DNA of 64,000 bases, taken from IMG/VR virus record IMGVR_UViG_3300018079_000003, positions 1-64,000 of that record; one strand, written 5' to 3'. The notes under the pieces are model-generated. The model saw only the letters and a list, made by a program, of their open reading frames with translations, had not been told where the DNA came from and ran no database searches. Position 1 is the first letter of the stretch. Each line of letters begins with the position of its first letter. Positions 25,593-58,802 of this stretch are shown one piece after another. A program made the position numbers and the translations under genes. Source of the DNA: a virus.

Positions 25593-25617
25593 CAGTGTTT
25601 AAACTTTGTGCTATACT
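25589..25617 (+). promoter_or_regulatory. Sigma70-type promoter with a very short leader
   Basis: TTGACA-N17-TATACT, with ATG 25627 nine nt after the -10. The spacer contains GTTTAAAC. Confidence 0.6.
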
Positions 25618-25626
25618 CCGGGCACG

Positions 25627-26277
25627 ATGAAAGATAAATCGTTAAAACATGAAACTCGGGAGGGATGGCTGCTCGCAGCGGTCGCTCTCATGCGTCCCTT
25701 GTTCTCGGACAGGGGTTATACCGTCCCGCAAGTGCGGGTGTCCTGCGGCTGGCCTTCCAGTCGCGCGTTGAGTGCTAAAAAGAGGTGCCTCGGAGAGGCG
25801 TGGTCGAAAGATGCGTCGTCTGAAAAGATTGCGAATATTTTCATCACGCCGTGGTTGGAAGAAAAACCCGATGAGGACCAAGGAATTTTGCCCACCCTGA
25901 TCCACGAATTGGGGCATGCGACGGTTGGAAACAAAGAGGGTCATAATAAAGTTTTTGGTAAATGTGTCCGGGCAGTGGGTCTGACCGGCAAGCTTACTTC
26001 GACTCATGCGAGTAAAGAACTGCTCGAACAATGCGTGGCGTGGCACAAGGAATTGGGCGAGTTTCCGCATGGTAAACTCGACTCCAACAAACGTCCGAAG
26101 AAAAAGCAAACCACCCGCTTGATCAAATGCGAGGACAAAGCCAGCGGTTATACCGTCCGCATCACTCGCAAGTGGTTGGAGGAAGGCGGCGCGCCGATTT
26201 GCCCGCTGAATAACAAACCCATGACTTACGAAATCCCGGACGATCTGGATTTCGACGGGGAGGGCGACAATGAATAG
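25627..26277 (+). CDS. SprT-like zinc metallopeptidase domain protein
   Basis: HELGHA zincin motif in an SprT-like context (LIHELGHATVG..GH...F). Confidence 0.65.
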   Translation: MKDKSLKHETREGWLLAAVALMRPLFSDRGYTVPQVRVSCGWPSSRALSAKKRCLGEAWSKDASSEKIANIFITPWLEEKPDEDQGILPTLIHELGHATVGNKEGHNKVFGKCVRAVGLTGKLTSTHASKELLEQCVAWHKELGEFPHGKLDSNKRPKKKQTTRLIKCEDKASGYTVRITRKWLEEGGAPICPLNNKPMTYEIPDDLDFDGEGDNE

Positions 26278-34615: not shown

Positions 34616-34819
34616 TTGAAAGTTATTTGCCTCGTTTGCGGAAAGCAAGCCGTTCCATACTACCAAAGCTACGAAAAGAACGGATGGGAAGCGGGCTTCA
34701 GGTGTTGTTATTTGAGAATTCCGTTTCGGGATTTTACACCTCTAACAACGGAGCGACTTATTGAGAGCGCCCCGCTCTATTACGAAAACCGTCGAGAAGA
34801 ATTAGATTACGGGTTTTAA
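34616..34819 (+). CDS. Small hypothetical Cys-containing protein
   Basis: 67-aa ORF with a TTG start. Last plus-strand ORF before the convergent block. Confidence 0.25.
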   Translation: MKVICLVCGKQAVPYYQSYEKNGWEAGFRCCYLRIPFRDFTPLTTERLIESAPLYYENRREELDYGF

Positions 34820-35392
34820 AATGGAGTTGAGGATTCTACCAGCGCCGGGAGCCGGTCCCGAAGTCGGAGCGCCCTGACTGACGTTCTTGATCCTCGCCGT
34901 GGTAAGCTTGTTTTGCGTGCTCGCGGGCGCGGGTGATGGAGATGGGCCGGGAGTGGGGACATCAGCCGTCTTCGGTCCCGAGGGCGTGGACGCATTCAAA
35001 ACAGGATTTCCCTCGCCAGACTGGGAAATGGATTGAGACACCTGATCGAACGGCGGGGCGACTTCTAGCAACCTTCCCTGCTTGTCGGCTTCCATAAGGT
35101 CATTGCCCGCGAGGTAAAGCTGGTTGAACATTACCCCAAGGTCTCCCGCAATGCTGCGGTATAGGCCCACACCCGCCCGCTGTAGGGCGTCTTTGTTGTC
35201 GGCGATCAGTTTAGCCTCTGGGCGCTTCTCGAACGTTGCAATGGCCGTGGAGAACGCAGGCGGGGCACCGGCAAACAGCCCTCGAATGGCCGGAAGTTGC
35301 AATAACTCGTCCGGGAAGTCCCCGCCTTGGGACTGGGTTGTGGGGGTCACTTCGGGCGTGGAAGATTTCGGTTCGACGATATTTTCTGCCAT
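34802..35392 (-). CDS. Virion-module hypothetical protein with a Pro/Ser-rich C-terminus
   Basis: Start taken at MAENIVEPK (ATG 35392), just after the stop of the giant gene. Confidence 0.45.
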   Translation of the reverse strand: MAENIVEPKSSTPEVTPTTQSQGGDFPDELLQLPAIRGLFAGAPPAFSTAIATFEKRPEAKLIADNKDALQRAGVGLYRSIAGDLGVMFNQLYLAGNDLMEADKQGRLLEVAPPFDQVSQSISQSGEGNPVLNASTPSGPKTADVPTPGPSPSPAPASTQNKLTTARIKNVSQGAPTSGPAPGAGRILNSILKPVI

Positions 35393-35399
35393 ATAGTAA

Positions 35400-38300
35400 T
35401 TAGTGCGCCAATTTGCGCGGTTTGACGAGGGATTCTGCAAGGGCGTTTGCTGCCGCCTGTTCATCTACCCGTCTTTCTGCGTTTTGTTTGGGGGAAAAAA
35501 TAATTTCGTAAGGATCAGATTTTGTGTTAAAATACCCCGTTCGTTGTTTTTTATCTCGATCCATAAATTTGAATCGTAAAACTTTTCCTCCACCCTCAGC
35601 CGGTTCTTCCGCTTCGATGATTACTTCCTGTTTTGGATATTTAATTAATTTAATTCCAGTATGGCGGGATGGAGTGACTTTGAGTCGGTCTCCGAGTTGC
35701 GGCGGTTGAAACTTCGCTGCGCCGACTTCCGGCAAACTCGTCGGCGGTTTGACAATTGATTCTTCTAGTGGAACCCACCCGCTTTCAGTCCACACTTCGG
35801 CACTTGTAATGGGGATTTTTTTAGTGGCATAATAATCTCCCGTCGATTCTTTTTTAAAATCTTTTGATTGCGGCAGGCGCAGCAACACCGGCTTTCCGTC
35901 TTCAGGAGCGAAGTGCCATGCGATATTAGCTTTGGTAGTCCAATATGATCTCTTTTCCGTAGATTTATCGGGCCAAGTTGATTGGTCCGTTCCATAAGAC
36001 GGGGGAAATATTAAAATATTTTTGGTGCGAAGGATGTCGCCTAGTCGCTCTTGATTACTCGCATGATAGACGTAGCCCGGATCAGTAGGAGTTTTGGAAT
36101 CGGGACTTTTCAGGGCATCCCAAAATTCTGGAGGTTGGAACGTCACGCCGACATCCGGGAGACCCGCCGTGTCGATTTCCTTGTTATTATAAAAAACTTT
36201 CAGGCCCTTCGTGACTGCGGCGTCTTCGATAGCCCCCCGTTGCGCGCGCGGCAGGGTTTCCCACCGGCCTGGACCCTCGATTCCGATAGTGTTTTCGTCC
36301 ACGTTGTAGGCGCGCAGGAATTTTCGCGCCCCCATAACTTCGTATAACTTCTCAACACCCCCCACGTCCATATCCCGCGCTAATTTATCAAGGTCAATAT
36401 CCAGATCACGCGCCGTATTAAGTTCATACGCCGCTTGCTCGTGACCTTCGGGCGCAAGAATTACGTCTCCCTTCGGGCCGATCCAATAGGCGGCTCCCGG
36501 ATCATTGCGCAACGCTGATTTCTTTTCCGCTCGTTCAACCGCCCTCTGGAATACTCGCTTCTTCGGTTGTAGTTGCACGGGCGCATCTTCGGCTATTTGC
36601 GCGGGTCTGTCAATTGGAAATTTTGGCTGGTATTTAGGGTTGATTTGACGAAAATGAAACCCCGCAGAGCCTTCGCCCGTGGCGGCTTCCCACGCCTCAC
36701 GAAAAAATTGTTGCTGGGCCACGACGTTCATCGCCGAATCAATGTCTGTTTGGATAAGTGCTTCGGCGCGTTTCCCAAAAGAATCGGAAGCGGCTTTTAG
36801 TAATTGAACAAACTCAGGAGTGGCCGATTTTAAGCCGACTGCGTGTGCGTATGTAGTGAATCCTTTTGTATCGGTTGCCCATTTACCGAATTCCTGCGGC
36901 GTCATCTTGGCGATGGATTTCACCAATTCTTCGGCCTGTTCCGCGTTTTTAGGCGGTTGAAATTTTGTTGCCGCCGCGTCAAGGGCGGCGTCTCTAACCG
37001 TTTTAGGAAGCTGACTGGTTTCTAATTCTTCCGTTGTGAGGCCCCGTGCTGTTTCTTCTGTCGCTTGACCGATTTCTTTAGCCCGGCTAAGAGCATCCGA
37101 GCGGTTAAGAAATTCACCGGCATGGGTCGTAAATCCATCAGTAAATGGACCTTCCGCGCCCACTACTCGGGCGTTTTGTTCTGCGTCTCCGTGCCAAAAA
37201 CCTTCCCAAATTTTACCGCGCTCGTCCCGGACGGCGGCTGATTTAATAGCTCGCGGCTCGGCACTAGGTTGAAATCGACGTAGTTGATCAAAATCAAAGG
37301 ATTCTAATGGATACTCGGGGTAGTCTTTTGGAACCTGTTCTAAATCCTTTGCTCGTTCAATTGCATCCGTGCGATTCAAGAACTCTCCCGAATGGGTGAT
37401 AAATCCGTCTTCTAGCCGGTTTAAAAAATCTTCTTTTGGAGAGTTATATGTTTCAAATTGGAGTCCCTTTGTGACCGCATCGGAATGAAACATACCCTCA
37501 TATATTTTTCCGCTTGGGAATCGAATAGCAGCCGATTTTATTGCACGAGGATTTTCTTTTTTAGGCTGAAATCCCGCTGACAAGGTCAACGTATTACCCC
37601 GAAATTGCGGCTGTTCCGGCGTGACCTGAAGCTGTTTGATATTTTCCAGATTCAACCGCTGTATGGCTTCAATAAATTCCGGCATCGCGATTCCTTTCGC
37701 TTGGGCGGCGGCTTCGATCTGCTGACGAAGCGGATTCACTTCCATAATTTCGCGACCGGCGATCCCCTGCCTCTCTGCCTCCGGCCCCTCAAACTTACCA
37801 CGGGGAATCACCGGCACCTCGACGCGGCCCGGCAGCGTCGCGGCGCTCACCTCTTGGGCGGCAATATTGAGCGGCAATTTTCCTTTTTGAATTCGCGCCG
37901 TATCCGGCAACCGAAAATTGAAAAGCATGTTGATGAAATCGGCGCGGCCTTGATCTAAGCCCGAAGCGGCCCCCCGCGGGGGAGGGGCGAAAAATCCCAC
38001 ATCCGTAACGCTCTTGGGGACCACAAGTGGCTCGCCCGCGCCGGTGCGACCGGCCATTTGATTTCTAACGAACTGTTCAGTATCTTTGAATAGTTGCTGC
38101 CAGCCCTCGGGGGTAAGGGTGTCCCCGGCGATAGGGTAAGGCGACGCATCGGCGACCCCCAACTCGACTAATTTCGACGCGAGTTTGTGCGCGTTGGCAG
38201 AAAATACTTCGGGCGACCAGCCTAGGATTTGGTATTTGTCGCCCTTCAGTTTGATGACCCGCTCGGGGAAGAAATTCTTTTCCCATAGCGCACGGGCTTC

Positions 38301-40883
38301 GGGCGGCATAGTGCGAAAGGTTTCGATCAATGCCCTTCGGGCTTCACGATTTGAAGTCGTGGCGGCGGCTGGCTCTCCCGGCGCAGATAAATAATTGACT
38401 TTTACTCCGGCTTGTTGCGCAATTGCTTCCGCAACCTGACCAAGGATTTCTCGCTGAGTTTGAGTGCCTCCGGGCACGGGAATTTCCGGTGCGGATTTGG
38501 CGATTACCCGAGCTTGCTCGGCGTTATCCGTGGGCGCGGGGGCCGTCGTTGGACCGGGCTGAATGGTTGGACGGGCGGAAGGTTGGCGGGGTTCGACGGG
38601 AATACCTTGCGCGGCTTCCCGGACGGCCTCGGTGACTCGAAACTTGGGGGCAACTTGGCCAATTTGGGATACGCGCCCGGGCGACAACGGTTCGCCGCCT
38701 AGAGTAGAAACCAGTTGTGCTACGATGCGAGCCAATCGTCCAGTCAGACCGGAAACATTTTCTAAATTCCCGCTTTTGAAAACTACGTCGAAATTCTCGG
38801 CGGCGAGTTCGCGCGCGAGATACGAGTCGGCTACAGCCGTAGCTTCTTGGGGAGAAAGAATATCCCGCCATGCGTGCTGTGCAATCGAGTTTGGTTCTAC
38901 GCCAGGGTTGGCCTGAACCGCCCGGTCCATGATTTCACCGAGTGTCGCTTTAACCCGGTCTTGCACGAAGCCTGCCTGCGGCTCCGCACCCGTAGCGGCA
39001 CGGTATTCATTGGCAACGGTCATCGCGATTTTTTCCTTTGCGTAGTTCAAGCCCGTGCCGGTGGCGTCGAGGATGACTTCCCGCCAGTCGCCGGGTCCAA
39101 TTCGGGAGGCGTATCGAGTGCCTTCGTTTTCCCATTGGGTGCTGTAGTCTTCCCGCACAATCCGGTCAATCGCTTGGTTGGCGCTTTCTCCTAAAACATC
39201 TTGAATAGGGTGAAATACCTCATGCGGGGCCGCATCGACATTTCGCATGAGAATAACCCGGCTGGGTTTTCCATCTTTACCCGGCAGATTTGCGGTAAAA
39301 AATCCCTCCTGCTCCGCAAAAGTTTTTGATTGCTCCGGGGAAAACCCCGCCTTTAATAACGCTTGCTCGGCGGCAGGAATTTCTTTAGGAAGCATAAAGG
39401 CATCCATAGGCATCCCCGTTCCCTTCATAAACGCGCGGATCGCGTTCAAATGAGTCTGTTGTGCGGGAGAAAGCGCGCCATAGGCGTTCCGATGAATTTG
39501 GTCCAGAACTGGAAATTGGCTGGAAGAAGGAACGGGCTTATCACTCCCCCACGCGCGCGGGCCTACGAGTTGGCCGCTGATAATCCGGCCTCCTGCGCGC
39601 CGGGCAGCGCCAAGGCCACCGAAGAAAGCGCCGATACCGACCGACTGCGTGTCTTGCGGACTTTCTGACGTAAGCGCCGCCGTGCCTATATCAAACGCGA
39701 GACCCTTGCTGATTTCATACGCGGCCATTGGAATCGACCCGGCCACGTCTTTTGCGAGTTGCGTGACGCCGGATCGAACTGGAACCGCGCCTGCGATCTG
39801 CTCACCGGCACCCGCGATTTTTTGTCCAATTTCTGCCACTGTGCGTCCGGTTCGCGCCGCGATTTCTCCGGTCTTTAATCCGGCCAGCGCCCCGAGCGGC
39901 CCTCCTTTAATTGCCCCCGCCGTAACCCCGACTGCCGGACCAGCGATTTTAACCGCCTTGCCGCCTAGTTCTGTTAACACTCCTGCGGTTTGGATTCCGC
40001 GACCAGCTACAACTTCTGCCGCCTTGTCTGCCTTTGCGACGATTTTTTCAGCCCCGGCTGCAACTTTACCCGGAATCAACCTGCCTGCGCCTTGAAAAAG
40101 TTTCCCAAAAGTCCAAAACGAAACCGGGTCGCCCGGCGCAAGGGCCGCTACTTCTGCTTCGCGGATGGGTTTACCAGACATTTCAAGGTCTTTGCGAACT
40201 TCTTCGCTCACGCCCGAGGGTATTAAAAATCCGCTCCCACCTTTTATAATTTTGTCCTCCGCCTCACTTAACCGCACGTCATCCCATAAGTCTTTTATTT
40301 TTTCTTCCGCCGTGCGCGAAGCGGTAACTCTACGAGTAATTTTATCTGCCAGTTTTTGTCCAGATCGACCTATACCAAATAAAGCCGTTTCTGTCCCGGT
40401 GAGATTTTCCAACACCCGTCGCTGTCCTTCCTGCGTCAACTCTTGCGTGAATCCGGGTCGGCTTGCGTCACCGGTAACTTCTCCGATGGCCGAAGCAATC
40501 GGAACGCCCACAAGCGCGTTGGCGTAGTTCCACGCTTGTTTTCCCAATCCTTTTATTAAACTCCCAACGGCGGTCGCAGCTTCTCCGATGGTGGGAGCGT
40601 CTTCAAATTTAAACCCTCGCTCTTTGATTCGATCCTGAACGTCGGCGACTTTTTGAATAATCGCGGGATCAGACTGCAAATCTTTGTTTTGACGGAGGGC
40701 CTTTACCGGGTGAAAGTGCTCGGGGTCTTGGATAGACAGACTAAACAAGTCATCGGCGGACAGGTCGCGAATCGGATTTACCTCGGAAGGACCGGATGCT
40801 GATTGATAAAATTCAATTTCTTCGGGCGTCGGAGTATCCGCTTGATAAAACTCAATTTCTTCGGGAGTAGGAGTGCCGGCCAT
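35400..40883 (-). CDS. Giant multidomain virion protein (1827 aa; ejected or internal polyvalent-type protein)
   Basis: Uninterrupted 5.5-kb ORF at the distal end of the internal-protein cluster. It has a Gly/Ala-rich hydrophobic segment, tandem domain repeats and recurrent FQP linkers. Confidence 0.7.
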   Translation of the reverse strand: MAGTPTPEEIEFYQADTPTPEEIEFYQSASGPSEVNPIRDLSADDLFSLSIQDPEHFHPVKALRQNKDLQSDPAIIQKVADVQDRIKERGFKFEDAPTIGEAATAVGSLIKGLGKQAWNYANALVGVPIASAIGEVTGDASRPGFTQELTQEGQRRVLENLTGTETALFGIGRSGQKLADKITRRVTASRTAEEKIKDLWDDVRLSEAEDKIIKGGSGFLIPSGVSEEVRKDLEMSGKPIREAEVAALAPGDPVSFWTFGKLFQGAGRLIPGKVAAGAEKIVAKADKAAEVVAGRGIQTAGVLTELGGKAVKIAGPAVGVTAGAIKGGPLGALAGLKTGEIAARTGRTVAEIGQKIAGAGEQIAGAVPVRSGVTQLAKDVAGSIPMAAYEISKGLAFDIGTAALTSESPQDTQSVGIGAFFGGLGAARRAGGRIISGQLVGPRAWGSDKPVPSSSQFPVLDQIHRNAYGALSPAQQTHLNAIRAFMKGTGMPMDAFMLPKEIPAAEQALLKAGFSPEQSKTFAEQEGFFTANLPGKDGKPSRVILMRNVDAAPHEVFHPIQDVLGESANQAIDRIVREDYSTQWENEGTRYASRIGPGDWREVILDATGTGLNYAKEKIAMTVANEYRAATGAEPQAGFVQDRVKATLGEIMDRAVQANPGVEPNSIAQHAWRDILSPQEATAVADSYLARELAAENFDVVFKSGNLENVSGLTGRLARIVAQLVSTLGGEPLSPGRVSQIGQVAPKFRVTEAVREAAQGIPVEPRQPSARPTIQPGPTTAPAPTDNAEQARVIAKSAPEIPVPGGTQTQREILGQVAEAIAQQAGVKVNYLSAPGEPAAATTSNREARRALIETFRTMPPEARALWEKNFFPERVIKLKGDKYQILGWSPEVFSANAHKLASKLVELGVADASPYPIAGDTLTPEGWQQLFKDTEQFVRNQMAGRTGAGEPLVVPKSVTDVGFFAPPPRGAASGLDQGRADFINMLFNFRLPDTARIQKGKLPLNIAAQEVSAATLPGRVEVPVIPRGKFEGPEAERQGIAGREIMEVNPLRQQIEAAAQAKGIAMPEFIEAIQRLNLENIKQLQVTPEQPQFRGNTLTLSAGFQPKKENPRAIKSAAIRFPSGKIYEGMFHSDAVTKGLQFETYNSPKEDFLNRLEDGFITHSGEFLNRTDAIERAKDLEQVPKDYPEYPLESFDFDQLRRFQPSAEPRAIKSAAVRDERGKIWEGFWHGDAEQNARVVGAEGPFTDGFTTHAGEFLNRSDALSRAKEIGQATEETARGLTTEELETSQLPKTVRDAALDAAATKFQPPKNAEQAEELVKSIAKMTPQEFGKWATDTKGFTTYAHAVGLKSATPEFVQLLKAASDSFGKRAEALIQTDIDSAMNVVAQQQFFREAWEAATGEGSAGFHFRQINPKYQPKFPIDRPAQIAEDAPVQLQPKKRVFQRAVERAEKKSALRNDPGAAYWIGPKGDVILAPEGHEQAAYELNTARDLDIDLDKLARDMDVGGVEKLYEVMGARKFLRAYNVDENTIGIEGPGRWETLPRAQRGAIEDAAVTKGLKVFYNNKEIDTAGLPDVGVTFQPPEFWDALKSPDSKTPTDPGYVYHASNQERLGDILRTKNILIFPPSYGTDQSTWPDKSTEKRSYWTTKANIAWHFAPEDGKPVLLRLPQSKDFKKESTGDYYATKKIPITSAEVWTESGWVPLEESIVKPPTSLPEVGAAKFQPPQLGDRLKVTPSRHTGIKLIKYPKQEVIIEAEEPAEGGGKVLRFKFMDRDKKQRTGYFNTKSDPYEIIFSPKQNAERRVDEQAAANALAESLVKPRKLAH

Positions 40884-43948: not shown

Positions 43949-44770
43949 CTAATCTTTTTGAAGCGTCCATAAAGCAATACCGGGAGGATGAAAAACCCCC
44001 CCGTCGTTGGGCGTATCTGGAATATCTTCGGCTTCGCCAAATGTCTCAAACGCCGCGTGCGGAGCAACTCCCGCCGCCGTAGTGAGTGTAGTTTCTGGCG
44101 TCCCGCCCGAATCTTTTGTGGCCTGCACCAACCAGCGACCCCGCACATTTTGGTTTGCTCCGCCAAACACCGACCATCCGGGGTTTGCCGTCAGGGCCTC
44201 GGTCAAGACCGTATAGGCCACTTGTTTGATGTCTCCGGGCACGCCGGAAATAGTTCGCCATAAATTTCGCTCCCACCAAATCCAAACTGAAATGGTTGTG
44301 TCATAATACTTTTGAAATTCTACCGGCGCTGAGGGACGAGAAGCGGTGGAACCCGATAAATCAATTCCCGAAAAAGGAATCCATGCCGTGCCGTTATAAA
44401 CGTGCCAACTAATCGGGTTGCCGATACTCGGATCGGCTTCAGTCGGATCATGGGTGGTGCGCAACCACACCGGAGGGTCGGCCACTAAGGGCGTGCTTGT
44501 CCCGGTTTGAAACCATTGCTGTTCCGATGCAGAAATATCCAGCGGCACATATCGTTTGAGGTCCACGTCAAAGACCCACCATTGGGTTCCGTTTTTCAAC
44601 CATGGTCCTACATTTGAGGTCGGCTCAGTATCGCCGATGAAAATAAAATTTGCGCCGGTGGGCGAAACAATTTTCATACGCCGCACCATCGCTTCGGCTA
44701 AATCCGGCGGAGTCCCCCGAAACGTCGGGGGGATTTGCCCCATAATAATGATCAGATTTGTATCGTTCAT
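43949..44770 (-). CDS. Tail fibre/tail-associated protein (hypothetical)
   Basis: 273 aa. Assigned from position in the tail module and a general resemblance of the N-terminus to fibre proteins. Confidence 0.3.
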   Translation of the reverse strand: MNDTNLIIIMGQIPPTFRGTPPDLAEAMVRRMKIVSPTGANFIFIGDTEPTSNVGPWLKNGTQWWVFDVDLKRYVPLDISASEQQWFQTGTSTPLVADPPVWLRTTHDPTEADPSIGNPISWHVYNGTAWIPFSGIDLSGSTASRPSAPVEFQKYYDTTISVWIWWERNLWRTISGVPGDIKQVAYTVLTEALTANPGWSVFGGANQNVRGRWLVQATKDSGGTPETTLTTAAGVAPHAAFETFGEAEDIPDTPNDGGVFHPPGIALWTLQKD

Positions 44771-44779
44771 AAAATTATA

Positions 44780-45565
44780 TTATGGGCATGCGACATAAAG
44801 ACTTACCGTAGTTGTATTTGCTCCATCTGGATTCACTCCAATTTTCCCGAATGAATGCACAAAGAAATATGGGTCGTTATGTGCGGCGGTTTCCTGCGCA
44901 AGGGCAGTTGCAAAACAACCCCATCCGTCTTCAAATAAAACACTAGTGCTACTTGTGCCATCATTCCAACGCAAAATGAAAAGCAACGCTGTTGTATACA
45001 TTCCGGGACATGATGGAGTATCGAATATGGCTCCGCTTTCATAAACCAACTTATAATTTCCCGCAGGCAAAGGATTTTCACCGTTGAACCAAGTCAACAC
45101 AAATTGTGGGTTCATCGTTTCCAATAATTTCCACCCATCAATGCAGCCGGGATCACCACCCGTAGGAGTCGTAACCGGATTGCCGGGCGGACCCTCTCCT
45201 TCAGGAGTAATGGGCGTGACTACATAGGTATCGCCCCCTCCCGGACTTCCGGGGGGTAAAGGATGTCCCGGACCTTCTGGGGGTTGTGGAACGCATTCAA
45301 ATATTAACACTAATTCTCCGTCGATTACTTGATAAATGTTATAGCACAACGCCCCCGGAACCGGCGTCCAATCCAGAAAAAATGGTCCGGGAAATTCACC
45401 CGCAATTACTAATCCGCCTACTTGCGGAATCGTTCCAAAAGGCTCCAACACAATGATCGGGACTCCAAAACCACTTCCCGACGCAACATCCCCCTCGCAA
45501 ATGGCCGGGGATACGTAATTAATGCACGGACGCCGGGCAAACAATATCTCCATTACCGAGGTCAC
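44780..45565 (-). CDS. Structural hypothetical protein with a Pro/Gly-rich linker
   Basis: 261 aa. Overlaps the upstream gene by 4 nt. Confidence 0.4.
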   Translation of the reverse strand: MTSVMEILFARRPCINYVSPAICEGDVASGSGFGVPIIVLEPFGTIPQVGGLVIAGEFPGPFFLDWTPVPGALCYNIYQVIDGELVLIFECVPQPPEGPGHPLPPGSPGGGDTYVVTPITPEGEGPPGNPVTTPTGGDPGCIDGWKLLETMNPQFVLTWFNGENPLPAGNYKLVYESGAIFDTPSCPGMYTTALLFILRWNDGTSSTSVLFEDGWGCFATALAQETAAHNDPYFFVHSFGKIGVNPDGANTTTVSLYVACP

Positions 45566-47559
45566 AAACCCTCCCCGAGGCTAAATATTCTAGGCACGAC
45601 TGTTTGTAACTCATGTTCCGCAAACTTAGTCGCCACACATAACGCCACCCGGTCGGCGGCGTCCTGCGATACAATGCTCTCGCCGGTTCCCACCCCAATA
45701 GCCGTAAATCCACTTTGAGAGATCGCCGCCGTTTTGCTAGCCATGAAAAGTCGAATTGCTTTAGCCGATAGCTGATCGACCACCGCGACGCGACTATCCG
45801 CATGAACGCCTTTGCCATCGAACCGAATTGCATTAAACGGAACTTCATTTATGCACGCCTGATTCGAGCCGTCCACCGGCACCGCCTCGTGTATCGCGCG
45901 TGTTCGTATCCACCGAATCGCAGCCGGACCGTGGCCCACGATCAATATCTGAAAACTTTCGTCGATGTCTTCGTTATTGGGAGATTCCACCGGGCACGAG
46001 CCGGTTTCCTCGTCCATGGATTTTTGGCTGGCTTCTTCCGTCCGCTCTACCCGCGACTGCGGCTTAAATCCAAATAACTTAGTGGTTGCCAAAATTTCAA
46101 ATTCCGGCATGAGACTGCCCCGCTCCACGGATAGTTGTTTTATCAATACCGGCTTATACGCGCCCCGCAAACCTCCCGCATAGAAAATTCCAAGATCGAG
46201 ATTTTCCTCAATCCCAACCAAGGCCACTTCCGCCCATCCAAATCTGCACTCTTCGCCGGGCGGTTTCTTTTCGGAGGTTTGGCCAAAATATCCGCGCGTT
46301 TCTACCGACCAAGTAATCGGACATTCGTTATCCAGACGTTCGGGACGGAAAACTTCCCACAAACGATTTTGGTCATCCACGTCTTTTGAGACATGATAAA
46401 TCCGGTCCTGCCCGACAATATGTCCATAAATCCACTCTACCGGGCGAGTGCCCATCCAATAACCCGCCCATGACGCCCCGGAATTGTCGTTTACCGTCTC
46501 GATGCTGGCATCATTTAAGACCCACGTATGTTTGTTATATAGGTCTTCCGAAGGAACGCTCATCAAGAGATATGATCCAAACGCCGCCCCCGCTACCAAC
46601 GACAGATCGTCGCTAAGTTGCGTTTTACTAATCATCATTTCGTTATCACGAATTGGCAGACGCGAAGTAATCTGAGACGCTTGCGCGGAGTCAAACATGA
46701 CGATCCCGGTATGACTAAACCACGACAGACGACCAAAATGTGACACGATTGATCGTTGAGAGGTGCAACCAATATTAAACACCTCCGCCTGAAAATTATC
46801 GGTGGTCGGCCATGACGCCCGGTCCCGAATATACGCCTGCAACAGTTCCGCGTTGGTATCCGTAAATACTAATAGCTGGGGGTTAATTAAAGCGGCGGTT
46901 TTTGCCATCGCTGTAACTTCGCTTTTAAACACAAACGCCGAAATTCCGCCGAGGTAAACGTCCTCCCGAAAACTAAACGGATTGGAAATATCGCTCGCGC
47001 GCACAAAATCTTTAAAGGCAACCCACAACCGGTCGCCCACCCACGCCATCGGCCCGCCGATGGGAGTCTCAAAAGGCCGATCCCTAATATGACCCGACTC
47101 GAAACCGTCGTAAAACGCCGGAGCCGTCGCGCCGCCGTCCTGAATGATTAGCACCGGACGCGCATCAATCACTTCAATTGCCGATCCTAAATCGGGGGTA
47201 ATCCGCCTCGCCGACTGAACTGTTTGCACCCAAAACATCTGCTTCGCAAAAGACGACATCAAAACATTGGGTAACTGTCGAAAACTCAGGAACGGATGGG
47301 GGGCGACATAAATCGCGCCGTCTACCGCGACGACGATTTCTTCCACGCCGGAGCGCGGACGAAAAAGGGCGGCCCCCTGAAGCTTGCCGGGCGGTAGGGT
47401 AATGATACACTTATAGCCGGGTCGGCAGGAGATCGAGCCACCAATGTTTAAAACATTCATGCCACTCCAATAGTAGCCAATCGGCACCTGCTCCGGCGCA
47501 CTGTCGGATTTGGCCCCTCTAAAGAAGGTTCCGTCGAAATCTTGGATCGGGACGGCCAT
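45562..47559 (-). CDS. Large tail protein (nozzle / tail tubular B-like, by position)
   Basis: 665 aa, immediately after a 315-aa gene, as with T7 gp11/gp12. No motif evidence. Confidence 0.35.
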   Translation of the reverse strand: MAVPIQDFDGTFFRGAKSDSAPEQVPIGYYWSGMNVLNIGGSISCRPGYKCIITLPPGKLQGAALFRPRSGVEEIVVAVDGAIYVAPHPFLSFRQLPNVLMSSFAKQMFWVQTVQSARRITPDLGSAIEVIDARPVLIIQDGGATAPAFYDGFESGHIRDRPFETPIGGPMAWVGDRLWVAFKDFVRASDISNPFSFREDVYLGGISAFVFKSEVTAMAKTAALINPQLLVFTDTNAELLQAYIRDRASWPTTDNFQAEVFNIGCTSQRSIVSHFGRLSWFSHTGIVMFDSAQASQITSRLPIRDNEMMISKTQLSDDLSLVAGAAFGSYLLMSVPSEDLYNKHTWVLNDASIETVNDNSGASWAGYWMGTRPVEWIYGHIVGQDRIYHVSKDVDDQNRLWEVFRPERLDNECPITWSVETRGYFGQTSEKKPPGEECRFGWAEVALVGIEENLDLGIFYAGGLRGAYKPVLIKQLSVERGSLMPEFEILATTKLFGFKPQSRVERTEEASQKSMDEETGSCPVESPNNEDIDESFQILIVGHGPAAIRWIRTRAIHEAVPVDGSNQACINEVPFNAIRFDGKGVHADSRVAVVDQLSAKAIRLFMASKTAAISQSGFTAIGVGTGESIVSQDAADRVALCVATKFAEHELQTVVPRIFSLGEGL

Positions 47560-48506
47560 TAGGAAACATCCCAGTCGCGCTTATCCACCAACGATTGAGA
47601 CCCGTCCATAACCACGACCGGATTAACCGTAGTATTCGGCTCGACTTTTTGCTGGGCTTCCAACTCCAAACGCACAGCAGTCACCTCATACGCCTGTGCC
47701 TCTGCTAATTTTTCGGCGGCGTAATACTTACGAGCCTGCACTCCCAACAGAAATCCTACTCGGCTTCGCAACGGGACGTGATCAAACCGGCTGGTAAAAA
47801 TCGGGTTCTTGCGCATGTATGCAATACGAACCCACGATGACGAACGGTTGATTTTAATCCTACGAAATTGTGGCACGGTCTCGTCTGGCTCATACACGCC
47901 CAAAAACACACCGTCTTGTTGCATCAGGGTAATCGAACCTGCGGACGGAGCCTTGTAAATTCCCGTAATGCGCGCAACAGTAGGCGCGGCGGTATCCGGG
48001 ACCGCAACTCCATAAATCGTGGGGACTTGGTATCCATCGACCCACTGCCCATCGACTTGACGACGCAGTTTGTTACCGTCTGAGTCATAACCATAGACTA
48101 GGAGTTCTTTTCCATTATCTTCGGCAAGCTGTAACTGCGTCACTAACTTTGCAGGTGCCGAAATATCTCGATACGTGTAGTGCCAAGCCCCGCCGTCTTG
48201 CCAAGACCACTGGCACCCCTGACAACAATCACCATTTCCATTAAGGTGAAAGCTGAAAAGTTGGCCGTAGCCTAGGGAGGGACGACCCCCGATATTCACT
48301 GCGATTACGGTCTCTACCTCTCGCGGTAATGTAAAACATTTAGAGTCACCTACGGAACATAAATCCAAGAAACCTTTGAATCCTTCTAGGTCCGCCTTAT
48401 TAGCAATCATTGTGACCACGTCCGCGCACCATCGAAATAGCTTTACATCGTCGCAAACCCCAATGATTTTTTTCGTCTCGTCTGCAATATCATCAATCCT
48501 GAACAA
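47559..48506 (-). CDS. Tail adaptor / tail tubular A-like protein (by position)
   Basis: 315 aa. Assigned by position only. Confidence 0.3.
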   Translation of the reverse strand: MFRIDDIADETKKIIGVCDDVKLFRWCADVVTMIANKADLEGFKGFLDLCSVGDSKCFTLPREVETVIAVNIGGRPSLGYGQLFSFHLNGNGDCCQGCQWSWQDGGAWHYTYRDISAPAKLVTQLQLAEDNGKELLVYGYDSDGNKLRRQVDGQWVDGYQVPTIYGVAVPDTAAPTVARITGIYKAPSAGSITLMQQDGVFLGVYEPDETVPQFRRIKINRSSSWVRIAYMRKNPIFTSRFDHVPLRSRVGFLLGVQARKYYAAEKLAEAQAYEVTAVRLELEAQQKVEPNTTVNPVVVMDGSQSLVDKRDWDVS

Positions 48507-49197
48507 ATCGCCCTCCCTTACGTAAGTTTTCTAATTTAAACAGCGGTTGAAGATTTGAAAAGTGAAAGCACCGTTTTTGCTGTTCAGGAATCGTCAAATC
48601 AAATTTACAGCATGGGTGGATGTGATCCACATGCCATTCAGGACCATAATTTTTCCACGACATGCCGGGACGAAACTGCTTTTCCAAATACGCGCGCAAA
48701 TCCGGCCATGAGCACCCGACCAATTCCACCGCCGCCCGAGACTTGACCGCGCCCCGCAATGCCTCGTTAATCCGTTTTCGCAATCGTTTTTTTAATTTAA
48801 AAGCTGGATCATTAAGGCAACGATATGCCTCCCGTGCCCGACCCAAATCCCGAACCCTCGGTCGGTTATGTAACCGCCACGCTTCAGTAGAAGCACGAGA
48901 TTTTTCAGGATTATTTAACGCCCACTCCCGGTTAGACGCCTTGATTTTTTCAATATTTTTTGCCCGCCAAGCGCGCCCGTATGCGCGGCTTTTTTCCCGA
49001 TTCTTTTCTCGCCATGCGCGACCCGCCGCTCTTATTTTACCGGGATTTAACGACTGCCACTTACGAACCCCCGCGCGTGCTTTTTCTAAATTTTTATTTC
49101 GCCACTCGCGACACCGTGCGCGGGCTTTATCGGGGTTCATAGCTCGCAACTCCGCCCGCCGCCTAGAAATTTCTAATGGAGTGCCAGAATGTGGCAT
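48493..49197 (-). CDS. HNH endonuclease with an N-terminal basic repeat array
   Basis: C-terminal WHVDHI.P......N.QPL....N..K (HNH). The N-terminus has ~7 repeats of the type R.WR.KN.EK.RA. Confidence 0.7.
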   Translation of the reverse strand: MPHSGTPLEISRRRAELRAMNPDKARARCREWRNKNLEKARAGVRKWQSLNPGKIRAAGRAWREKNREKSRAYGRAWRAKNIEKIKASNREWALNNPEKSRASTEAWRLHNRPRVRDLGRAREAYRCLNDPAFKLKKRLRKRINEALRGAVKSRAAVELVGCSWPDLRAYLEKQFRPGMSWKNYGPEWHVDHIHPCCKFDLTIPEQQKRCFHFSNLQPLFKLENLRKGGRFVQD

Positions 49198-49198
49198 C

Positions 49199-49537
49199 TT
49201 AGTATTTTCCTTTTTTCATCTTCTCAGATACTATAGCATCTAACGCATCTTCTGTCTCCCTATTATTTTTGGTCGGCGGTTCGGCGTCATCCGATTCGAC
49301 ACCTACAATCTCGCGAACCTCAAACGTGCAAGAATACGTTTTGCCCGACCGCTCGTTGTCGGTCATCGTAAGGCTGGTTTTTTTATATCGAATCGTCATC
49401 CGGCCCTCGTGCGGCACGTCGATTTTTTCTTTTCCCGAATAATGAAATTCGGGATAGTGTTTTTCATCCATGCGATCCCCCGGCATCACTGACGGATTAT
49501 CCCATTTTTGACCAAGATTAAGATTTAATTGTTTCAT
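49199..49537 (-). CDS. Hypothetical protein
   Basis: 112-aa ORF between the fibre gene and the HNH gene. Confidence 0.45.
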   Translation of the reverse strand: MKQLNLNLGQKWDNPSVMPGDRMDEKHYPEFHYSGKEKIDVPHEGRMTIRYKKTSLTMTDNERSGKTYSCTFEVREIVGVESDDAEPPTKNNRETEDALDAIVSEKMKKGKY

Positions 49538-49542
49538 AATTT

Positions 49543-50874
49543 TTATGCGGGCGTAACCACGCCCTCGCGAATTTTTACCGAAAAAGTATTCATCGTGCGC
49601 GCGGCGCTCGCAAGATTTTTAACACCATAAGCGTGCCGCATCGCCGTGTCGGCAGTTGGAAGGGTGGTTATAACCGTCGCGACCAAGGCGCTCCCGATAT
49701 AAAATCGAATTTCCCCCCCGCCTCGATTCCACTCAATTCGGAATAGTTGTCCCACCGTTGTGCTTGGCGCAACGCCCGTATCCACAACCGTCTGACTGGT
49801 TCCGTCACACACCACGGCTTGCCAATTCGTATCCGGGAGCGACGTTGAAAAGCGGAATCCAACAAACACTACGGTCATCGTTTCGGTCTGCAAAAATAAA
49901 TTGGCAGCGGTCGCGTTAGTGTATCCAAGCCACGAACGAGTGCTGACCGTCTCGTTCAGCTTGACCCACATAACTGTCTTATTGTTTAAACTAAACAATC
50001 GAAACGACGTGGTGGGGGATTCGTAATAGGCCGAATTGTTTGTAGTCGCCGATGTGCGTAGGTCACGACCCTGTGGATTGTTTGCGTCGGCGGCAACCGC
50101 GTTTACCGAAGACGCCGTGGAAGTCCATGCATCCCCGATTAGTGTAACGCCGCCATTATGAAAATTCTGAGATCGCTCCGCAAAAAATAACCAATCACTA
50201 ACCGTCCCGCCCGCACCCGGAGGCCCCGTCGCGCCGGTATCACCCTTGTCCCCTTTCGGGACAAAATCAATAACGACTTCATCCGGTTGGACCAACGTTC
50301 CTGATTTAACGATGTTCGCGACCGTGAAAGTATCCCACGTCCCGTTATCGGTAATTACCCCGCTAATTGAAAAAATTGAAAAGACCGCTGGATTGGTTTT
50401 TTTGCGAACTGTTAAGGTTCCCCTGATAGTTGAAGTGCTGTCGTCCCACGTCGCCAGATACGCCGATAGACTATTCGTATCATCGTCTGTCTCGGAAATA
50501 AACAGCGCCGTCGCGAGGGCCAGATCGGCATTATTAAACCGCAAAACTCCCGCGCCGGGATCGCCCGATGAAGTCGTGCCGCTGTAAACGTAGTTAAGCC
50601 CGGTGCTGACTCCATCCGCCCCATTCGTGCCGTTGGTTCCATTCATTCCGGGCGCTCCATCATTTCCGGGAACACCTTGAATGCCTTGCGGGCCGGGGTC
50701 ACCCTCGGGACCGGTCGATCCAGCCGGACCGGTTGCGCCCACTGGACCCTGCGCTCCAACAAAATCAGGAGGCACCCGCCGCAATCGAAATACGTCCGGC
50801 GAAATTTCCACGGTGCAAATCACAAACCCATCTTCGACGATAGCGTTCCAAATTGGAATTTCAGATACCCTCAT
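49543..50874 (-). CDS. Collagen-like tail fibre protein
   Basis: A G-X-Y run GAQGPVGATGPAGSTGPEGDPGPQGIQGVPGNDGAPGMNGTNGTNGADG and a second run GDKGDTGATGPPGAGG. Confidence 0.65.
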   Translation of the reverse strand: MRVSEIPIWNAIVEDGFVICTVEISPDVFRLRRVPPDFVGAQGPVGATGPAGSTGPEGDPGPQGIQGVPGNDGAPGMNGTNGTNGADGVSTGLNYVYSGTTSSGDPGAGVLRFNNADLALATALFISETDDDTNSLSAYLATWDDSTSTIRGTLTVRKKTNPAVFSIFSISGVITDNGTWDTFTVANIVKSGTLVQPDEVVIDFVPKGDKGDTGATGPPGAGGTVSDWLFFAERSQNFHNGGVTLIGDAWTSTASSVNAVAADANNPQGRDLRTSATTNNSAYYESPTTSFRLFSLNNKTVMWVKLNETVSTRSWLGYTNATAANLFLQTETMTVVFVGFRFSTSLPDTNWQAVVCDGTSQTVVDTGVAPSTTVGQLFRIEWNRGGGEIRFYIGSALVATVITTLPTADTAMRHAYGVKNLASAARTMNTFSVKIREGVVTPA

Positions 50875-51074
50875 ATATTATCCACGCAAAGAAAATCGTT
50901 GTTATCTTCTAAAACAACCACACTATTATCTTCCAATAAAAAATCACAGGCTTCGATAGAAAGCAGAGGTGGGACGTTTAAACTATACCGACTCGCCCGG
51001 ATGAACCGCGCCGGGGGGCAACACGAATTCGCTAAATCCGGCCCGCGATAAACCGGTTTATTGCAATTTGACAT
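50871..51074 (-). CDS. Small hypothetical protein (possible fibre chaperone)
   Basis: 67-aa ORF filling the gap between the two fibre genes, with an ATGA overlap to the downstream fibre gene. Confidence 0.3.
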   Translation of the reverse strand: MSNCNKPVYRGPDLANSCCPPARFIRASRYSLNVPPLLSIEACDFLLEDNSVVVLEDNNDFLCVDNI

Positions 51075-52077
51075 ACGTTATTGTCGTCCGCAATGCCACC
51101 GCCGCTACGACATCCACCGTAGTGCATTTACCCCGTAAAGTAATTTGAGTATTATCTCCCGGAATCGCCGTCTGAACGGTAAACGACATAGTTTTCAGTC
51201 CGTTAACTCCTACATTGGACAGGGCGTGTTCTGATCCTCCTAAATCCAACGATGTCGTATTATTTCGCAAAATAAAAAATACCTGATCTGACGCAAGCAC
51301 TCCCGCCAATCCTACCACGTCTACCGAGACCGTAATTTGATAAGTCCCCGAGGTCGGCAATAAAACGCGCGCTTCCGAACCCCCGAAATCCACCGCAGAA
51401 TACGTAACTCCTAGATTATCATCAGTTCCCGACGTAAGAAAATACATCCCATTAGTTGCGGTATGAGAAACACCCGGCGATCCCGGCGGACCTGCCGGTC
51501 CTTGCGGGCCTGCCGGACCCGTTACGCTCTGGCCGGGAAAACCCGAAGGAACAACTAACTTACCCGCCGTAATTGTCGCGGGCGCGCCGCCCAAACCTTG
51601 AACTAACGTTACCCATAGCGTGCCCGAACCGTCCTTAGCCGTAATCTGATACCAACCCGAAGTATCAATAAAGATATACGATCCTACCAACAACGCCGGA
51701 TTGTATTGGGTCGAAATTTGTCGGTTCGGATCGCCAGAATTCGGCTGCGAAAAACTCGCAAGTGTTACCGTAAAAGCATTACTGCCATTTGCCCCCGCCA
51801 CGCCCGGGATGCCTGCGGGGCCGGTTGCACCAATAATCCCCTCTTGGAACAGTCGTATAAAATAACATGCGAGGCCCTCGTCACTCGCGCGAGGATTATT
51901 GTCCAACCCGATATCCAGACTACACGGCAAGGACCACGTCACCACGCCGTTCACTTCTGTTTTTACCACCGCACCAAAAAACTGTGTGGTAAAATTCTGA
52001 ATCTGCGAAGACAGTGCTTCGCATTCAATTGTGCTCGTCTCCGGGCAACAACAAGGACTACAACCGCACCCACACAT
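51058..52077 (-). CDS. Collagen-like fibre protein with a Cys-cluster N-terminus
   Basis: G-X-Y runs GATGPAGIPGVAGANG and TGPAGPQGPAGPPGSPG. The N-terminus is MCGCGCSPCCCPE. Confidence 0.6.
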   Translation of the reverse strand: MCGCGCSPCCCPETSTIECEALSSQIQNFTTQFFGAVVKTEVNGVVTWSLPCSLDIGLDNNPRASDEGLACYFIRLFQEGIIGATGPAGIPGVAGANGSNAFTVTLASFSQPNSGDPNRQISTQYNPALLVGSYIFIDTSGWYQITAKDGSGTLWVTLVQGLGGAPATITAGKLVVPSGFPGQSVTGPAGPQGPAGPPGSPGVSHTATNGMYFLTSGTDDNLGVTYSAVDFGGSEARVLLPTSGTYQITVSVDVVGLAGVLASDQVFFILRNNTTSLDLGGSEHALSNVGVNGLKTMSFTVQTAIPGDNTQITLRGKCTTVDVVAAVALRTTITYVKLQ

Positions 52078-52080
52078 AAA

Positions 52081-52593
52081 TTATTTTCCTTTTATTTGTC
52101 CGCGCAACTCTCCATGCCGGTGACTAAACCAGTAAAGCAAAACGGCCCCAACTCCGAGACACAAAATCAAAATTTCATTACCGACAATCAGGGATGGCAG
52201 CGCCATCAGCGCAATTCCGGCCGCAACCGCTACTGCACTAGTTGTCGCACTCCCCACAATAGCCTTCAACGGGGGCCACACAAACGACGCCGCGCCCGCC
52301 ACGAAAAGTAGCAAACCAACCCAAACGACGCCCTTCAGAGAAGCTAGTTTTGCTCCCATTTCTCGGGCCGTGTCTTTTTGGGCCGCACCGATTTTGGTTT
52401 TCACCCGTTCGGTAACTTTATTTCCCTCCGTCACACGCTCGAATTCCTGCGTCGTGCCGGTCTTTGGGTTTTCTGACTGCTCAACCCCTCCCGAAATACC
52501 GGACGGGCTTTGAAAATGGCTGCGTCCGCCCTTTTGAGACGCAATGCAACCAGAAAGCAACAGCCAAATCAAAATTAAAAATCCGATCTTCAT
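52081..52593 (-). CDS. Lipoprotein-signal membrane protein
   Basis: Lipobox LLSGC after a hydrophobic leader, and a C-terminal half with about three hydrophobic helices. Confidence 0.5.
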   Translation of the reverse strand: MKIGFLILIWLLLSGCIASQKGGRSHFQSPSGISGGVEQSENPKTGTTQEFERVTEGNKVTERVKTKIGAAQKDTAREMGAKLASLKGVVWVGLLLFVAGAASFVWPPLKAIVGSATTSAVAVAAGIALMALPSLIVGNEILILCLGVGAVLLYWFSHRHGELRGQIKGK

Positions 52594-52802
52594 TCGGAGG
52601 GTTTGGTTTTTAATCGACGAACCACATAAATCGCCGTCGCGACGCCAATGATAATTTGAACCAACAGTAGCGCAACCCGAAGATATGATTCAATCCCAGC
52701 AACCGCAGTCTCTTGCGCGGCTTGAACCGCCTGAACCCCCGCCCCCACAAAATTAGTCCCTACCAGCGCGCCAACTTTGGTTGCCTCTGATAAATTTTTC
52801 AT
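52590..52802 (-). CDS. Small membrane protein (holin-like)
   Basis: 70 aa with a hydrophobic C-terminal helix and a basic tail RRLKTKPSE. Confidence 0.4.
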   Translation of the reverse strand: MKNLSEATKVGALVGTNFVGAGVQAVQAAQETAVAGIESYLRVALLLVQIIIGVATAIYVVRRLKTKPSE

Positions 52803-52810
52803 ATTCTTTT

Positions 52811-52850
52811 TCCAAAAAGGGGTTTTGATCGTTTCCGACCAAAACCCCCC
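52811..52850 (-). terminator. Rho-independent terminator after the capsid gene
   Basis: Minus strand reads GGGGTTTTG-12 nt-CAAAACCCC followed by TTTTT. Confidence 0.7.
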
Positions 52851-52897
52851 GTGACCATGACGGCTTTGACTAATTACTCAGCCTCGGCCCACCCCAA

Positions 52898-54196: not shown

Positions 54197-54347
54197 ATAT
54201 GTAAACCTTTAACACGAGGCAAATTTTCCGTCGCCTCATCCGGTTGCAGCAAACAATCCGCCGCAAGGATGTATTGTGTTTTTCGTTGTGGCCATCAACG
54301 AAAATTAAGGCCGTCTCGGAAGCGCCAACCCGAGAATTAGGCGCTCA

Positions 54348-54381
54348 AAGAAACAGTGGGAAGTATAAGAAGAAAGGTCAA
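54348..54381 (-). promoter_or_regulatory. TTGACC-N17-CACTGT promoter candidate with a CCACTGTTTCTT 12-mer
   Basis: Starts immediately after the terminator T-run and lies ~150 nt upstream of the capsid ATG. Confidence 0.55.
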
Positions 54382-54384
54382 CTA

Positions 54385-54413
54385 ATAAAAAGGCGGTCGA
54401 AAATCGACCGCCT
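54385..54413 (-). terminator. Rho-independent terminator
   Basis: Minus strand reads GGCGGTCG-atttt-CGACCGCC followed by TTTTTATT. Confidence 0.7.
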
Positions 54414-54437
54414 CCAACATACAAAATTTTTGTAGTT

Positions 54438-54665: not shown

Positions 54666-54681
54666 AAATTTTTAAGGTTAC

Positions 54682-54715
54682 AAGAAACAGTGGGTCGCCA
54701 AAGAAAAAAGGTCAA
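54682..54715 (-). promoter_or_regulatory. TTGACC-N17-CACTGT promoter candidate with a CCACTGTTTCTT 12-mer
   Basis: Same architecture as 54348..54381, placed 21 nt upstream of ATG 54665. Confidence 0.55.
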
Positions 54716-54719
54716 TCTG

Positions 54720-55816: not shown

Positions 55817-55828
55817 GTTTGGGGTGTT

Positions 55829-58799: not shown

Positions 58800-58802
58800 A
58801 AA

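Follow-up and report, generated by a model that had tools for sequence, protein, structure and literature searches.

We analyzed a 64,000-nucleotide stretch of a virus genome (IMG/VR record IMGVR_UViG_3300018079_000003, positions 1 to 64,000), hereafter the window, which forms part of a metagenomic phage contig of ~69 kb. The subject of the analysis was a giant minus-strand open reading frame (ORF), which the initial annotation had reported as encoding a virion protein of 1827 amino acids (aa) with modules separated by the recurrent motif [FL]QP[PKS]. Its reading frame was intact, and the product comprised an N-terminal part, two copies of a cassette A, one cassette each of B, s4, s5 and s6, and then a conserved basic C-terminal tail. 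The features of the gene are listed below in protein order; pLDDT values (predicted local distance difference test) refer to AlphaFold2 (AF2) models.

35400..40883, minus strand: giant ORF, 1827 aa, second-to-last gene of the late/structural block
40803..40874, minus strand: N-terminal tandem duplication of TPTPEEIEFYQ (aa 4-14 and 17-27), 33 nt with 3 mismatches
39564..40136, minus strand: Gly/Ala-rich, mildly hydrophobic region (aa ~250-440), weak tape-measure-like similarity
38766..39530, minus strand: conserved HExxH domain (aa 452-706), candidate gluzincin-type metallopeptidase
39210..39224, minus strand: HEVFH motif (aa 554-558)
38787..38810, minus strand: ELAAENFD (aa 692-699), putative third-ligand helix with an E-x-x-A-E-x-x-D pattern
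37584..38531, minus strand: second conserved N-terminal domain (aa ~785-1100), ending RGNTLTLSAG directly before linker 1
37560..37571, minus strand: linker 1, FQPK (aa 1105-1108), pLDDT < 50
37272..37568, minus strand: cassette A copy 1 (aa 1106-1204), family A, phrog_839
37263..37274, minus strand: linker 2, FQPS (aa 1204-1207)
36960..37271, minus strand: cassette A copy 2 (aa 1205-1308), family A
36951..36962, minus strand: linker 3, FQPP (aa 1308-1311)
36570..36959, minus strand: cassette B (aa 1309-1438), family B, 18 members among close homologues
36561..36572, minus strand: linker 4, LQPK (aa 1438-1441), pLDDT < 50
36138..36569, minus strand: cassette s4 (aa 1439-1582), compact alpha/beta domain, pLDDT 79-93
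36129..36140, minus strand: linker 5, FQPP (aa 1582-1585), pLDDT dip (56) between two confident domains
35709..36137, minus strand: cassette s5 (aa 1583-1725), YVYHA…WPD…ESTGD domain, pLDDT 85-95
35700..35711, minus strand: linker 6, FQPP (aa 1725-1728), pLDDT ~31
35403..35708, minus strand: cassette s6 (aa 1726-1827), orphan, low-confidence AF2 model
35403..35432, minus strand: C-terminal tail SLVKPRKLAH, family consensus L-L-[VI]-[EQ]-P-R-[KN]-L-[KR]

All six motifs named in the initial annotation were present (GFQPKKE at aa 1105, RFQPSAE at 1204, KFQPPKN at 1308, QLQPKKR at 1438, TFQPPEF at 1582 and KFQPPQL at 1725), and all of them lie within the C-terminal 40% of the protein. This number is far above expectation: in residue shuffles of the protein (n = 5000), [FL]QP[PKS] occurred 0.14 times per protein on average and three times at most, and none reached six. 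The codons differ among the six sites (TTT, TTC or CTA; CAA or CAG; CCT or CCG), which indicates selection at the level of the peptide. Elsewhere in the window, ORFs carried the motif no more often than background, and this points to a dedicated system and away from a general capsid protease.

We then compared the query with a close set of 26 proteins, consisting of 25 giant homologues obtained by a word-indexed search (34-66% identity) and P0026, obtained by a profile search. The first ~1100 aa of these proteins are collinear and conserved, and divergence begins beyond that point. The conserved N-terminal part ends with RGNTLTLSAG-FQP in nearly all of them, the equivalent of linker 1 reading AGFQP in 25 of the 26 (AALQP in P0023). 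Motif sites were concentrated in the C-terminal regions (109 sites versus 4 in 26,000 N-terminal residues), with the consensus x-[AVRT]-[QKR]-[FLM]-Q-P-[KPRES] followed by acidic or polar residues. When the proteins were cut at [FLM]QP and the pieces clustered, cassette families A to L were obtained: A with 19 copies (including both query repeats), B with 18, C with 16 (~355 aa, corresponding to DUF7178), D with 9, and F, G, H, I (GNAT), J, K and L with fewer copies each. The number and order of cassettes vary between proteins; cassette A, for example, stands first in many, second in P0003 and fourth in P0005, and is doubled in P0006, P0015, P0024 and the query. The GNAT domains recognized by Pfam fall between consecutive linker sites. 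Aligning the homologues upheld the earlier proposal that the motif marks module boundaries, since it is kept at the junctions in every homologue examined, and judged by sequence comparison the modules behave as exchangeable cassettes. No gene fission at linkers was found in this set; P0008 and P0022 are just shorter proteins, with the usual ~200-aa gene coming next.

Such a pattern could also arise if the motif were a by-product of cassette exchange, with short stretches of junction DNA serving as recombination joints and the encoded peptide having no function. Cassettes are indeed shuffled, duplicated and lost exactly at these points; however, the junctions offer only 9-12 nt with codons that differ between sites, the conservation is at the amino-acid level in proteins with identities to the query down to 34% (lower among profile-search relatives), and the flanking DNA is not conserved. 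The two A copies of the query, which share 46% identity over 82 aa (BLASTP E = 8.5e-22), were barely detectable by BLASTN at the DNA level. We consider this explanation extremely unlikely.

We also searched 1.84 billion cluster representatives with an HExxH-domain profile (alignment A6). The search retrieved 153 proteins, almost all 1.2-3.4 kaa in length, with the domain at aa ~450-800. F-Q-P was used by ~70 of the 123 informative proteins, and the others repeat another residue between F and P: FAP (P0078, P0079, P0082, P0099 and P0135), FLP (P0106, P0171-P0173, P0182, P0183, P0186 and P0188), FMP (P0113 and P0118), FKP (P0114), FEP (P0061 and P0185), FSP (P0100), FTP (P0154) and FQAP (P0168). 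The first site after the N-terminal part carries the protein's own variant in many members (exceptions, P0114 and P0100), and the probability that two sites share the same x was 0.42 within one protein versus 0.19 across proteins. Strict Q-F-x-P occurred 365 times in C-terminal and 20 times in N-terminal regions family-wide. The linker is thus Q-[F/L]-Q-P in the lineage of the query and Q-[F/Y/L/M]-x-P in the whole family, where the preferred x depends on the lineage (Q, A, L, M, K, E, S or T). The definition given in the initial annotation, [FL]QP[PKS], is real in the query but too narrow, the family-wide signature being Q-[FYLM]-x-P. The QFGP within RAVHDFFGHAKE..QFGPKGE lies inside a cassette and does not count as a linker.

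The association between cassettes and local linker variants was examined for cassette A, whose hidden Markov model (HMM) detected 125 copies in 96 proteins. Most copies have [F/L/M]-x-P within a few residues upstream, and a few have Y-x-P; the cassette follows FQP, FAP, FSP, FLP, FMP, FKP or FTP, usually the dominant variant of the protein concerned. Cassettes of the relatives include GNAT, radical SAM (7 of 17 diverse members), NAS/SAM-methyltransferase-like, histidine phosphatase, DUF3293 and DUF7178 units. The same junction is attached to unrelated units, namely GNAT, radical SAM, methyltransferase-like, histidine phosphatase and DUF7178 units as well as A, B and s5. Because unrelated folds share the junction, the motif cannot belong to the structure of any one of them, and the factor that reads it must be common to all junctions. 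The junctions are very probably functional recognition sites, and we consider it probable, with some reserve, that they are sites of proteolysis.

The cassettes of the query itself were characterized individually. The tandem repeats described earlier after the first two motifs correspond to the two copies of cassette A, with cores close to where they had been placed. This cassette has a faint precomputed match to PF26092 (T4_Y16D), a Pfam family named after a T4 protein, whose model was not in the Pfam set used for our scans; against the PDB, the cassette A profile gave only a chance match (calpain-7, E = 2.1). The end of cassette B bears a conserved [YWF]-x-P-K-F-P, ~20 aa ahead of the next linker, that fits the aromatic-x-P pattern; the query has KYQPKFP at this place (aa 1417-1423; YQP at 36624..36632, minus strand, aa 1418-1420), and P0003 has FQP both here and at the next linker. 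This element might be an extra site releasing a ~20-aa spacer. Homologues of cassette s4 make up the C-terminal half of cassette H (~300 aa) in P0001, P0002, P0004 and P0009. Cassette s6 had no homologues by BLAST.

Cassette s5 (phrog_3147, E = 1e-16), with the longer signature YVYHATN…WPDGSxEKRSYW…ESTGD, matches the C-terminus of 'ParB-like' proteins of mycobacteriophage cluster C (~190 mycobacteriophage records) and is present in 17 other multidomain proteins (P0030-P0046). Its fusion partners elsewhere include topoisomerase IB, an M15 peptidase together with a retropepsin-like domain, LPD23 and an EncFtn-like domain, and it is a promiscuous module. The confident AF2 fold of s5 had no match in the PDB; the guess from YVYHA…ESTGD that it is an ADP-ribosyltransferase found no support and was dropped.

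The query does not carry the ~355-aa DUF7178 cassette that is the usual last module, s5 and the orphan s6 standing in its place. DUF7178 was found in 17 of 17 diverse relatives scanned and in most close homologues, and tblastn detected no copy elsewhere in the window; a literature search on DUF7178 and on phage polyprotein cargo returned nothing relevant. The C-terminal tail is conserved independently of the last cassette: 78 of 148 family members have 'PR' among their last 12 residues, compared with 4.2% of random 12-aa windows, and the tail is also found in 14 members that lack the DUF7178 module (carriers include P0002, P0004, P0014, P0016, P0024 and P0047). Its form, Φ-x-P-basic, resembles the linker. 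The tail could be a targeting signal, a pseudo-substrate or the last site.

These observations bear on the possibility that the motif is never cut and instead acts as a docking or handling signal, for example for a packaging partner, the portal or ejection channel or a chaperone, or as a joint within one multi-enzyme chain. The linker-like tail suggests binding motifs, and N4 virion RNA polymerase and several plasmid polyvalent proteins are described as delivered uncut in the part of Iyer et al. 2017 (PMC5512222) considered here. However, a passive linker needs no invariant aromatic residue and proline with a lineage-specific middle residue across more than 150 lineages, and no docking partner is known. 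Cassettes also occur alone or in other fusions (s5 in 17 architectures; A in its resemblance to the T4-named Pfam family), which fits independent function after release. We regard an uncut motif as unlikely.

We predicted two structures for the query by AF2, covering aa 431-1125 and aa 1425-1827, with cassettes A and B outside both; because the shuffled cassettes could not be aligned over the whole C-terminal region with MAFFT, aa 1425-1827 alone was modelled there. The first model (mean pLDDT 73.7) contained two folded units, at aa ~450-705 and ~785-1100, and the second (mean pLDDT 72.4) contained s4 and s5 as compact domains. The domain at aa ~785-1100 had a conservation of 0.63-0.76 per 50-aa block and a pLDDT of 73-93 over most of its length. 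Structure prediction had been proposed as a check on the module boundaries, and the four sites covered (1105, 1438, 1582 and 1725) lie in low-pLDDT stretches beside or between confident domains. Foldseek searches of both models against the PDB found nothing at E <= 0.001, and the N-terminal model matched only fragments of giant uncultured-phage proteins in BFVD (best E = 1.6e-3). At the sequence level, the whole query gave no Pfam family at E <= 1 and no match in the PDB.

The first folded unit contains a candidate peptidase that had escaped the initial annotation. Among the aligned domain sequences, H554 is conserved in 165 of 166 and H558 in all 166, and position 555 is Glu in 156 and Asp in 10. 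Downstream, E692 (137/138), A695 (135/138), E696 (134/138, with Asp in the other four) and D699 (127/138) are similarly kept, and these seven are the best-conserved positions of the family. Gluzincins, among them thermolysin (NEAISD), neprilysin (ENIAD) and ACE (EAIGD), are characterized by an HExxH motif and, further along the chain, a helix containing E-x-x-[AGS]-[DE]. In the AF2 model, three strands precede the helix carrying HExxH, and the second motif lies in a later helix, an order of secondary structure that fits the zincin fold. The HExxH motif and the downstream E692-x-x-A-E696-x-x-D699, which is conserved in 127-137 of 138 sequences and predicted to be helical after a small beta-sheet, appear to form a gluzincin-like signature. 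Gluzincins of the thermolysin and neprilysin type cut on the amino side of bulky hydrophobic residues (P1'), and this usual preference fits the presumed P1' of the linker (F >> L > M, Y). The family differs from solved zincins in that it matched none of them in sequence or fold, and in that its two motifs stand ~135 aa apart in the query and ~65-70 aa apart in P0025. The Asp variant, HDxxH, is found in ten distant members (P0130, P0155, P0159, P0171-P0173, P0176, P0179, P0182 and P0183).

On these grounds we propose, as a reading whose chances we consider evenly balanced, that the giant protein is a modular cargo precursor of the polyvalent kind, the junctions of which are cut by one dedicated endopeptidase, most probably the embedded HExxH domain. 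An N-terminal part of ~1100 aa (the Gly/Ala-rich region, the HExxH domain and the second domain) would precede the variable cassettes and the basic tail. The junctions would be recognized by a single dedicated enzyme; the HExxH domain would be the most probable one, processing either the chain it belongs to or other copies of the protein. Each cassette would be released as a protein of its own, inside the capsid or, following ejection, in the host. The scissile bond would be Q↓F, with F, L, M or Y at P1', the lineage-specific x at P2' and P at P3'; we place the cut here because gluzincins cut before bulky hydrophobic residues. That the embedded HExxH domain is the protease is a narrower claim, which we hold tentatively and at slightly less than balanced confidence.

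Several points weigh against this proposal. The HExxH domain gave no significant match to a Pfam peptidase, a PDB sequence or a PDB fold in the HMM and Foldseek searches, the AF2 confidence at the HExxH helix is only ~58, and the first linker is not docked into the domain in the AF2 model. A change of the catalytic Glu to Asp is unusual for an active zincin, and the HDxxH members P0173, P0182 and P0183 keep 5-8 F-L-P sites. The residue x is biased rather than uniform within a protein (P0026, P0068 and P0080), with P0026 and P0068 mixing Q, S and N. In addition, the co-occurrence of domain and sites is partly circular, since the wide family was retrieved with the domain profile, and the grounds for a virion location are confined to gene order and to weak PHROG matches in neighbouring genes.

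Some of these points would be met if the junctions were cut by a separate enzyme, such as a prohead or maturation protease, another phage zincin (a SprT-like gene lies at 25606..26277) or a host protease. In T4 and phiKZ-like phages, capsid proteases are known to recognize short consensus sites at which they trim internal proteins. The HExxH domain would then do other work, for example the degradation of cell wall or host proteins, as has been proposed for gp47 of phage phi24B (see below). Consistent with a separate enzyme, the peptidase assignment of the domain is unconfirmed by Pfam, PDB and Foldseek, HDxxH variants keep their sites, and the SprT-like gene is conserved in the neighbourhood. 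However, no prohead protease family was detected in the structural block, and the other structural ORFs, whose products would normally be substrates of a general maturation protease as well, lack the motif. The SprT-like gene belongs to the early/replication module and is below the Pfam threshold. Moreover, a lineage-specific x needs a co-inherited partner, and the only partner that is always present is the N-terminal part of the same protein. We consider a separate protease quite unlikely.

A stronger form of our proposal, possible but on the doubtful side, is that the family represents a true polyprotein of double-stranded DNA (dsDNA) phages, that is, an ejected precursor cut at Q↓[F/L/M/Y]-x-P by its own unclassified metallopeptidase, with a P2' preference that would have changed in step with the sites in more than 150 lineages. 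Exchange of cassettes would then be unconstrained, since any domain placed between two linkers would be released. N-terminal Phe and Leu are recognized by the bacterial ClpS/ClpAP N-degron pathway; more speculatively, a cut before Phe or Leu would give each injected effector a built-in short lifetime. As in protease-processed polyproteins, a short consensus is found at every junction. Eukaryotic RNA virus polyproteins offer a functional analogy only: they likewise combine one product, unrelated units, a short consensus that varies by lineage and an embedded protease. In contrast to the present case of a dsDNA phage with a zincin-type candidate, accessory cassettes and presumed cleavage, their protease is chymotrypsin- or papain-like and their units form the replication core.

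The resemblance to polyvalent proteins, which had been suggested earlier from the layout, stood in part. Polyvalent proteins are giant multidomain proteins of mobile elements with variable domain sets and an embedded HExxH domain proposed to release them, as here; in the part of Iyer et al. 2017 (PMC5512222) considered, processing by embedded zincins is predicted, the word 'linker' is absent and no junction or cleavage motif is defined. With 1827 aa and at least nine separable units, the query falls within the many-domain range of polyvalent proteins (2-15), and two cassettes, DUF7178 and s5, also occur in proteins that carry Pfam polyvalent-protein domains. However, the query carries none of the hallmark Pfam domains (LPD families, ART-PolyVal, MPTase-PolyVal and PBECR), in line with the empty Pfam scan, and its N-terminal 1100 aa, including the HExxH domain, make up a family of their own, for which no link to MPTase-PolyVal could be detected. 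The connection is indirect, through the DUF7178 of relatives and the query's own s5, which occurs with LPD23. DUF7178 is found with InPase and ART-PolyVal in P0028 and with LPD22 in P0029; neither protein has the linker. Conflict-related enzyme domains are present in the cassettes of relatives (GNAT, radical SAM, NAS/methyltransferase-like and histidine phosphatase), and none was assigned among the cassettes of the query.

A further comparison is offered by gp47 of phage phi24B, a 2811-aa polyvalent protein. According to the part of the report considered here, it was found in virions by proteomics, combines polyvalent domains with a metallopeptidase domain and is proposed to be ejected (bioRxiv 10.64898/2026.04.10.717836). 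Like the giant gene, it is very large and encoded with structural genes; by position, T7 gp16 is also comparable. In contrast, gp47 has no sequence similarity to the query (tblastn against 50,697 phage records matched only s5, in mycobacteriophages), that part of the report describes no junction motif, and packaging of the present protein is suggested by gene position.

Polyvalent proteins are thought to be a tool kit injected with phage DNA, and the separation of their domains has so far been predicted without defined sites. In the family described here, the junctions are marked by a defined signature of four residues that has natural variants, and the candidate protease has specific residues proposed for catalysis; processing is therefore directly testable. 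The linker also provides a simple rule for delimiting dozens of uncharacterized cassettes, radical SAM enzymes among them, which are possible effectors of anti-defence or host takeover and come from phages seen only in metagenomes. Should the proposed release prove true, the architecture might be used as a modular delivery scaffold.

The genomic context of the giant gene was also examined. The neighbouring features are as follows.

25606..26277, plus strand: weak SprT-like zincin, Pfam E = 0.002 (below threshold), conserved at L001 26285..26750
34802..35464, minus strand: ~200-aa gene 3' of the giant gene, 46-56% identity in all four related contigs
49543..50874, minus strand: collagen-repeat, tail-fibre-like protein
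51058..52077, minus strand: collagen-repeat, tail-fibre-like protein

The plus strand encodes a family A DNA polymerase, a helicase, an exonuclease, a sigma-like factor and the weak SprT-like protein. The minus-strand block, which runs from ~64 kb down to 34.8 kb, contains the collagen-like tail-fibre genes and two weak PHROG matches to 'virion structural protein'. The gene order at its end (a ~480-520-aa gene, the giant gene, the ~200-aa gene and then the convergent replication module) is the same in four related contigs (L001, L003, L004 and L005). Because the giant gene lies in the late block, at its end and beside tail-fibre-like genes, we infer that its product may be packaged in the virion.

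A PHROG search of the whole query returned three matches: two PHROGs of unknown function and one weak tape-measure PHROG (phrog_167 to aa 79-456, E = 2.3e-6). The last covers the Gly/Ala-rich region (aa ~250-440), which has a G+A content of 34-44% and no strong transmembrane segment, and it raises the possibility that the giant protein is a tail tape measure protein with a decorated C-terminus. However, this match is of the kind given by low-complexity composition. A tape measure gene would stand between a chaperone pair and the distal tail genes and encode an extended helix; the giant gene is second-to-last in the block, after the tail-fibre-like genes, with no chaperone pair 5' and only one ~200-aa gene and no tail-tip gene block 3', and its AF2 models show mostly globular domains rather than a long helix. 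We find a tape measure function very improbable.

The phage lineage is very divergent. PHROG and Pfam scans of ~30 neighbouring ORFs recognized no capsid, portal, terminase or prohead protease, and the two collagen-repeat proteins are the only clear structural signal near the giant gene. About 15 large, presumed structural ORFs on the minus strand at 43949..64000 had no PHROG, Pfam or phage tblastn match. ORFs of 683 aa and 636 aa among them could by size be portal and terminase; the 683-aa ORF had no match by tblastn against phages. The N-terminal part of the giant protein was found in no cultured phage (tblastn, the same 50,697 records) and, in a genome scan for a host or prophage, in no GTDB genome, and by these scans the family is known from metagenomes only.

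Minor features of the region were also noted. The N-terminal duplication of TPTPEEIEFYQ, pointed out in the initial annotation, is present and is recent; homologues have a single copy of the motif (consensus LTPEEIAEYE). No family match was found for the ~200-aa gene; the longest ORF for it shares 65 nt with the end of the giant gene, and the start chosen by the gene caller is later (196 aa). With the SprT-like gene the genome has a second HExxH-type candidate; this gene is located upstream of the one for the DNA polymerase, with one small ORF between them, and is probably related to replication. The GC content is ~0.58 at 12001..14000 and 38001..40000 versus ~0.51 elsewhere, and the second of these peaks coincides with the Gly/Ala-rich part of the giant gene.

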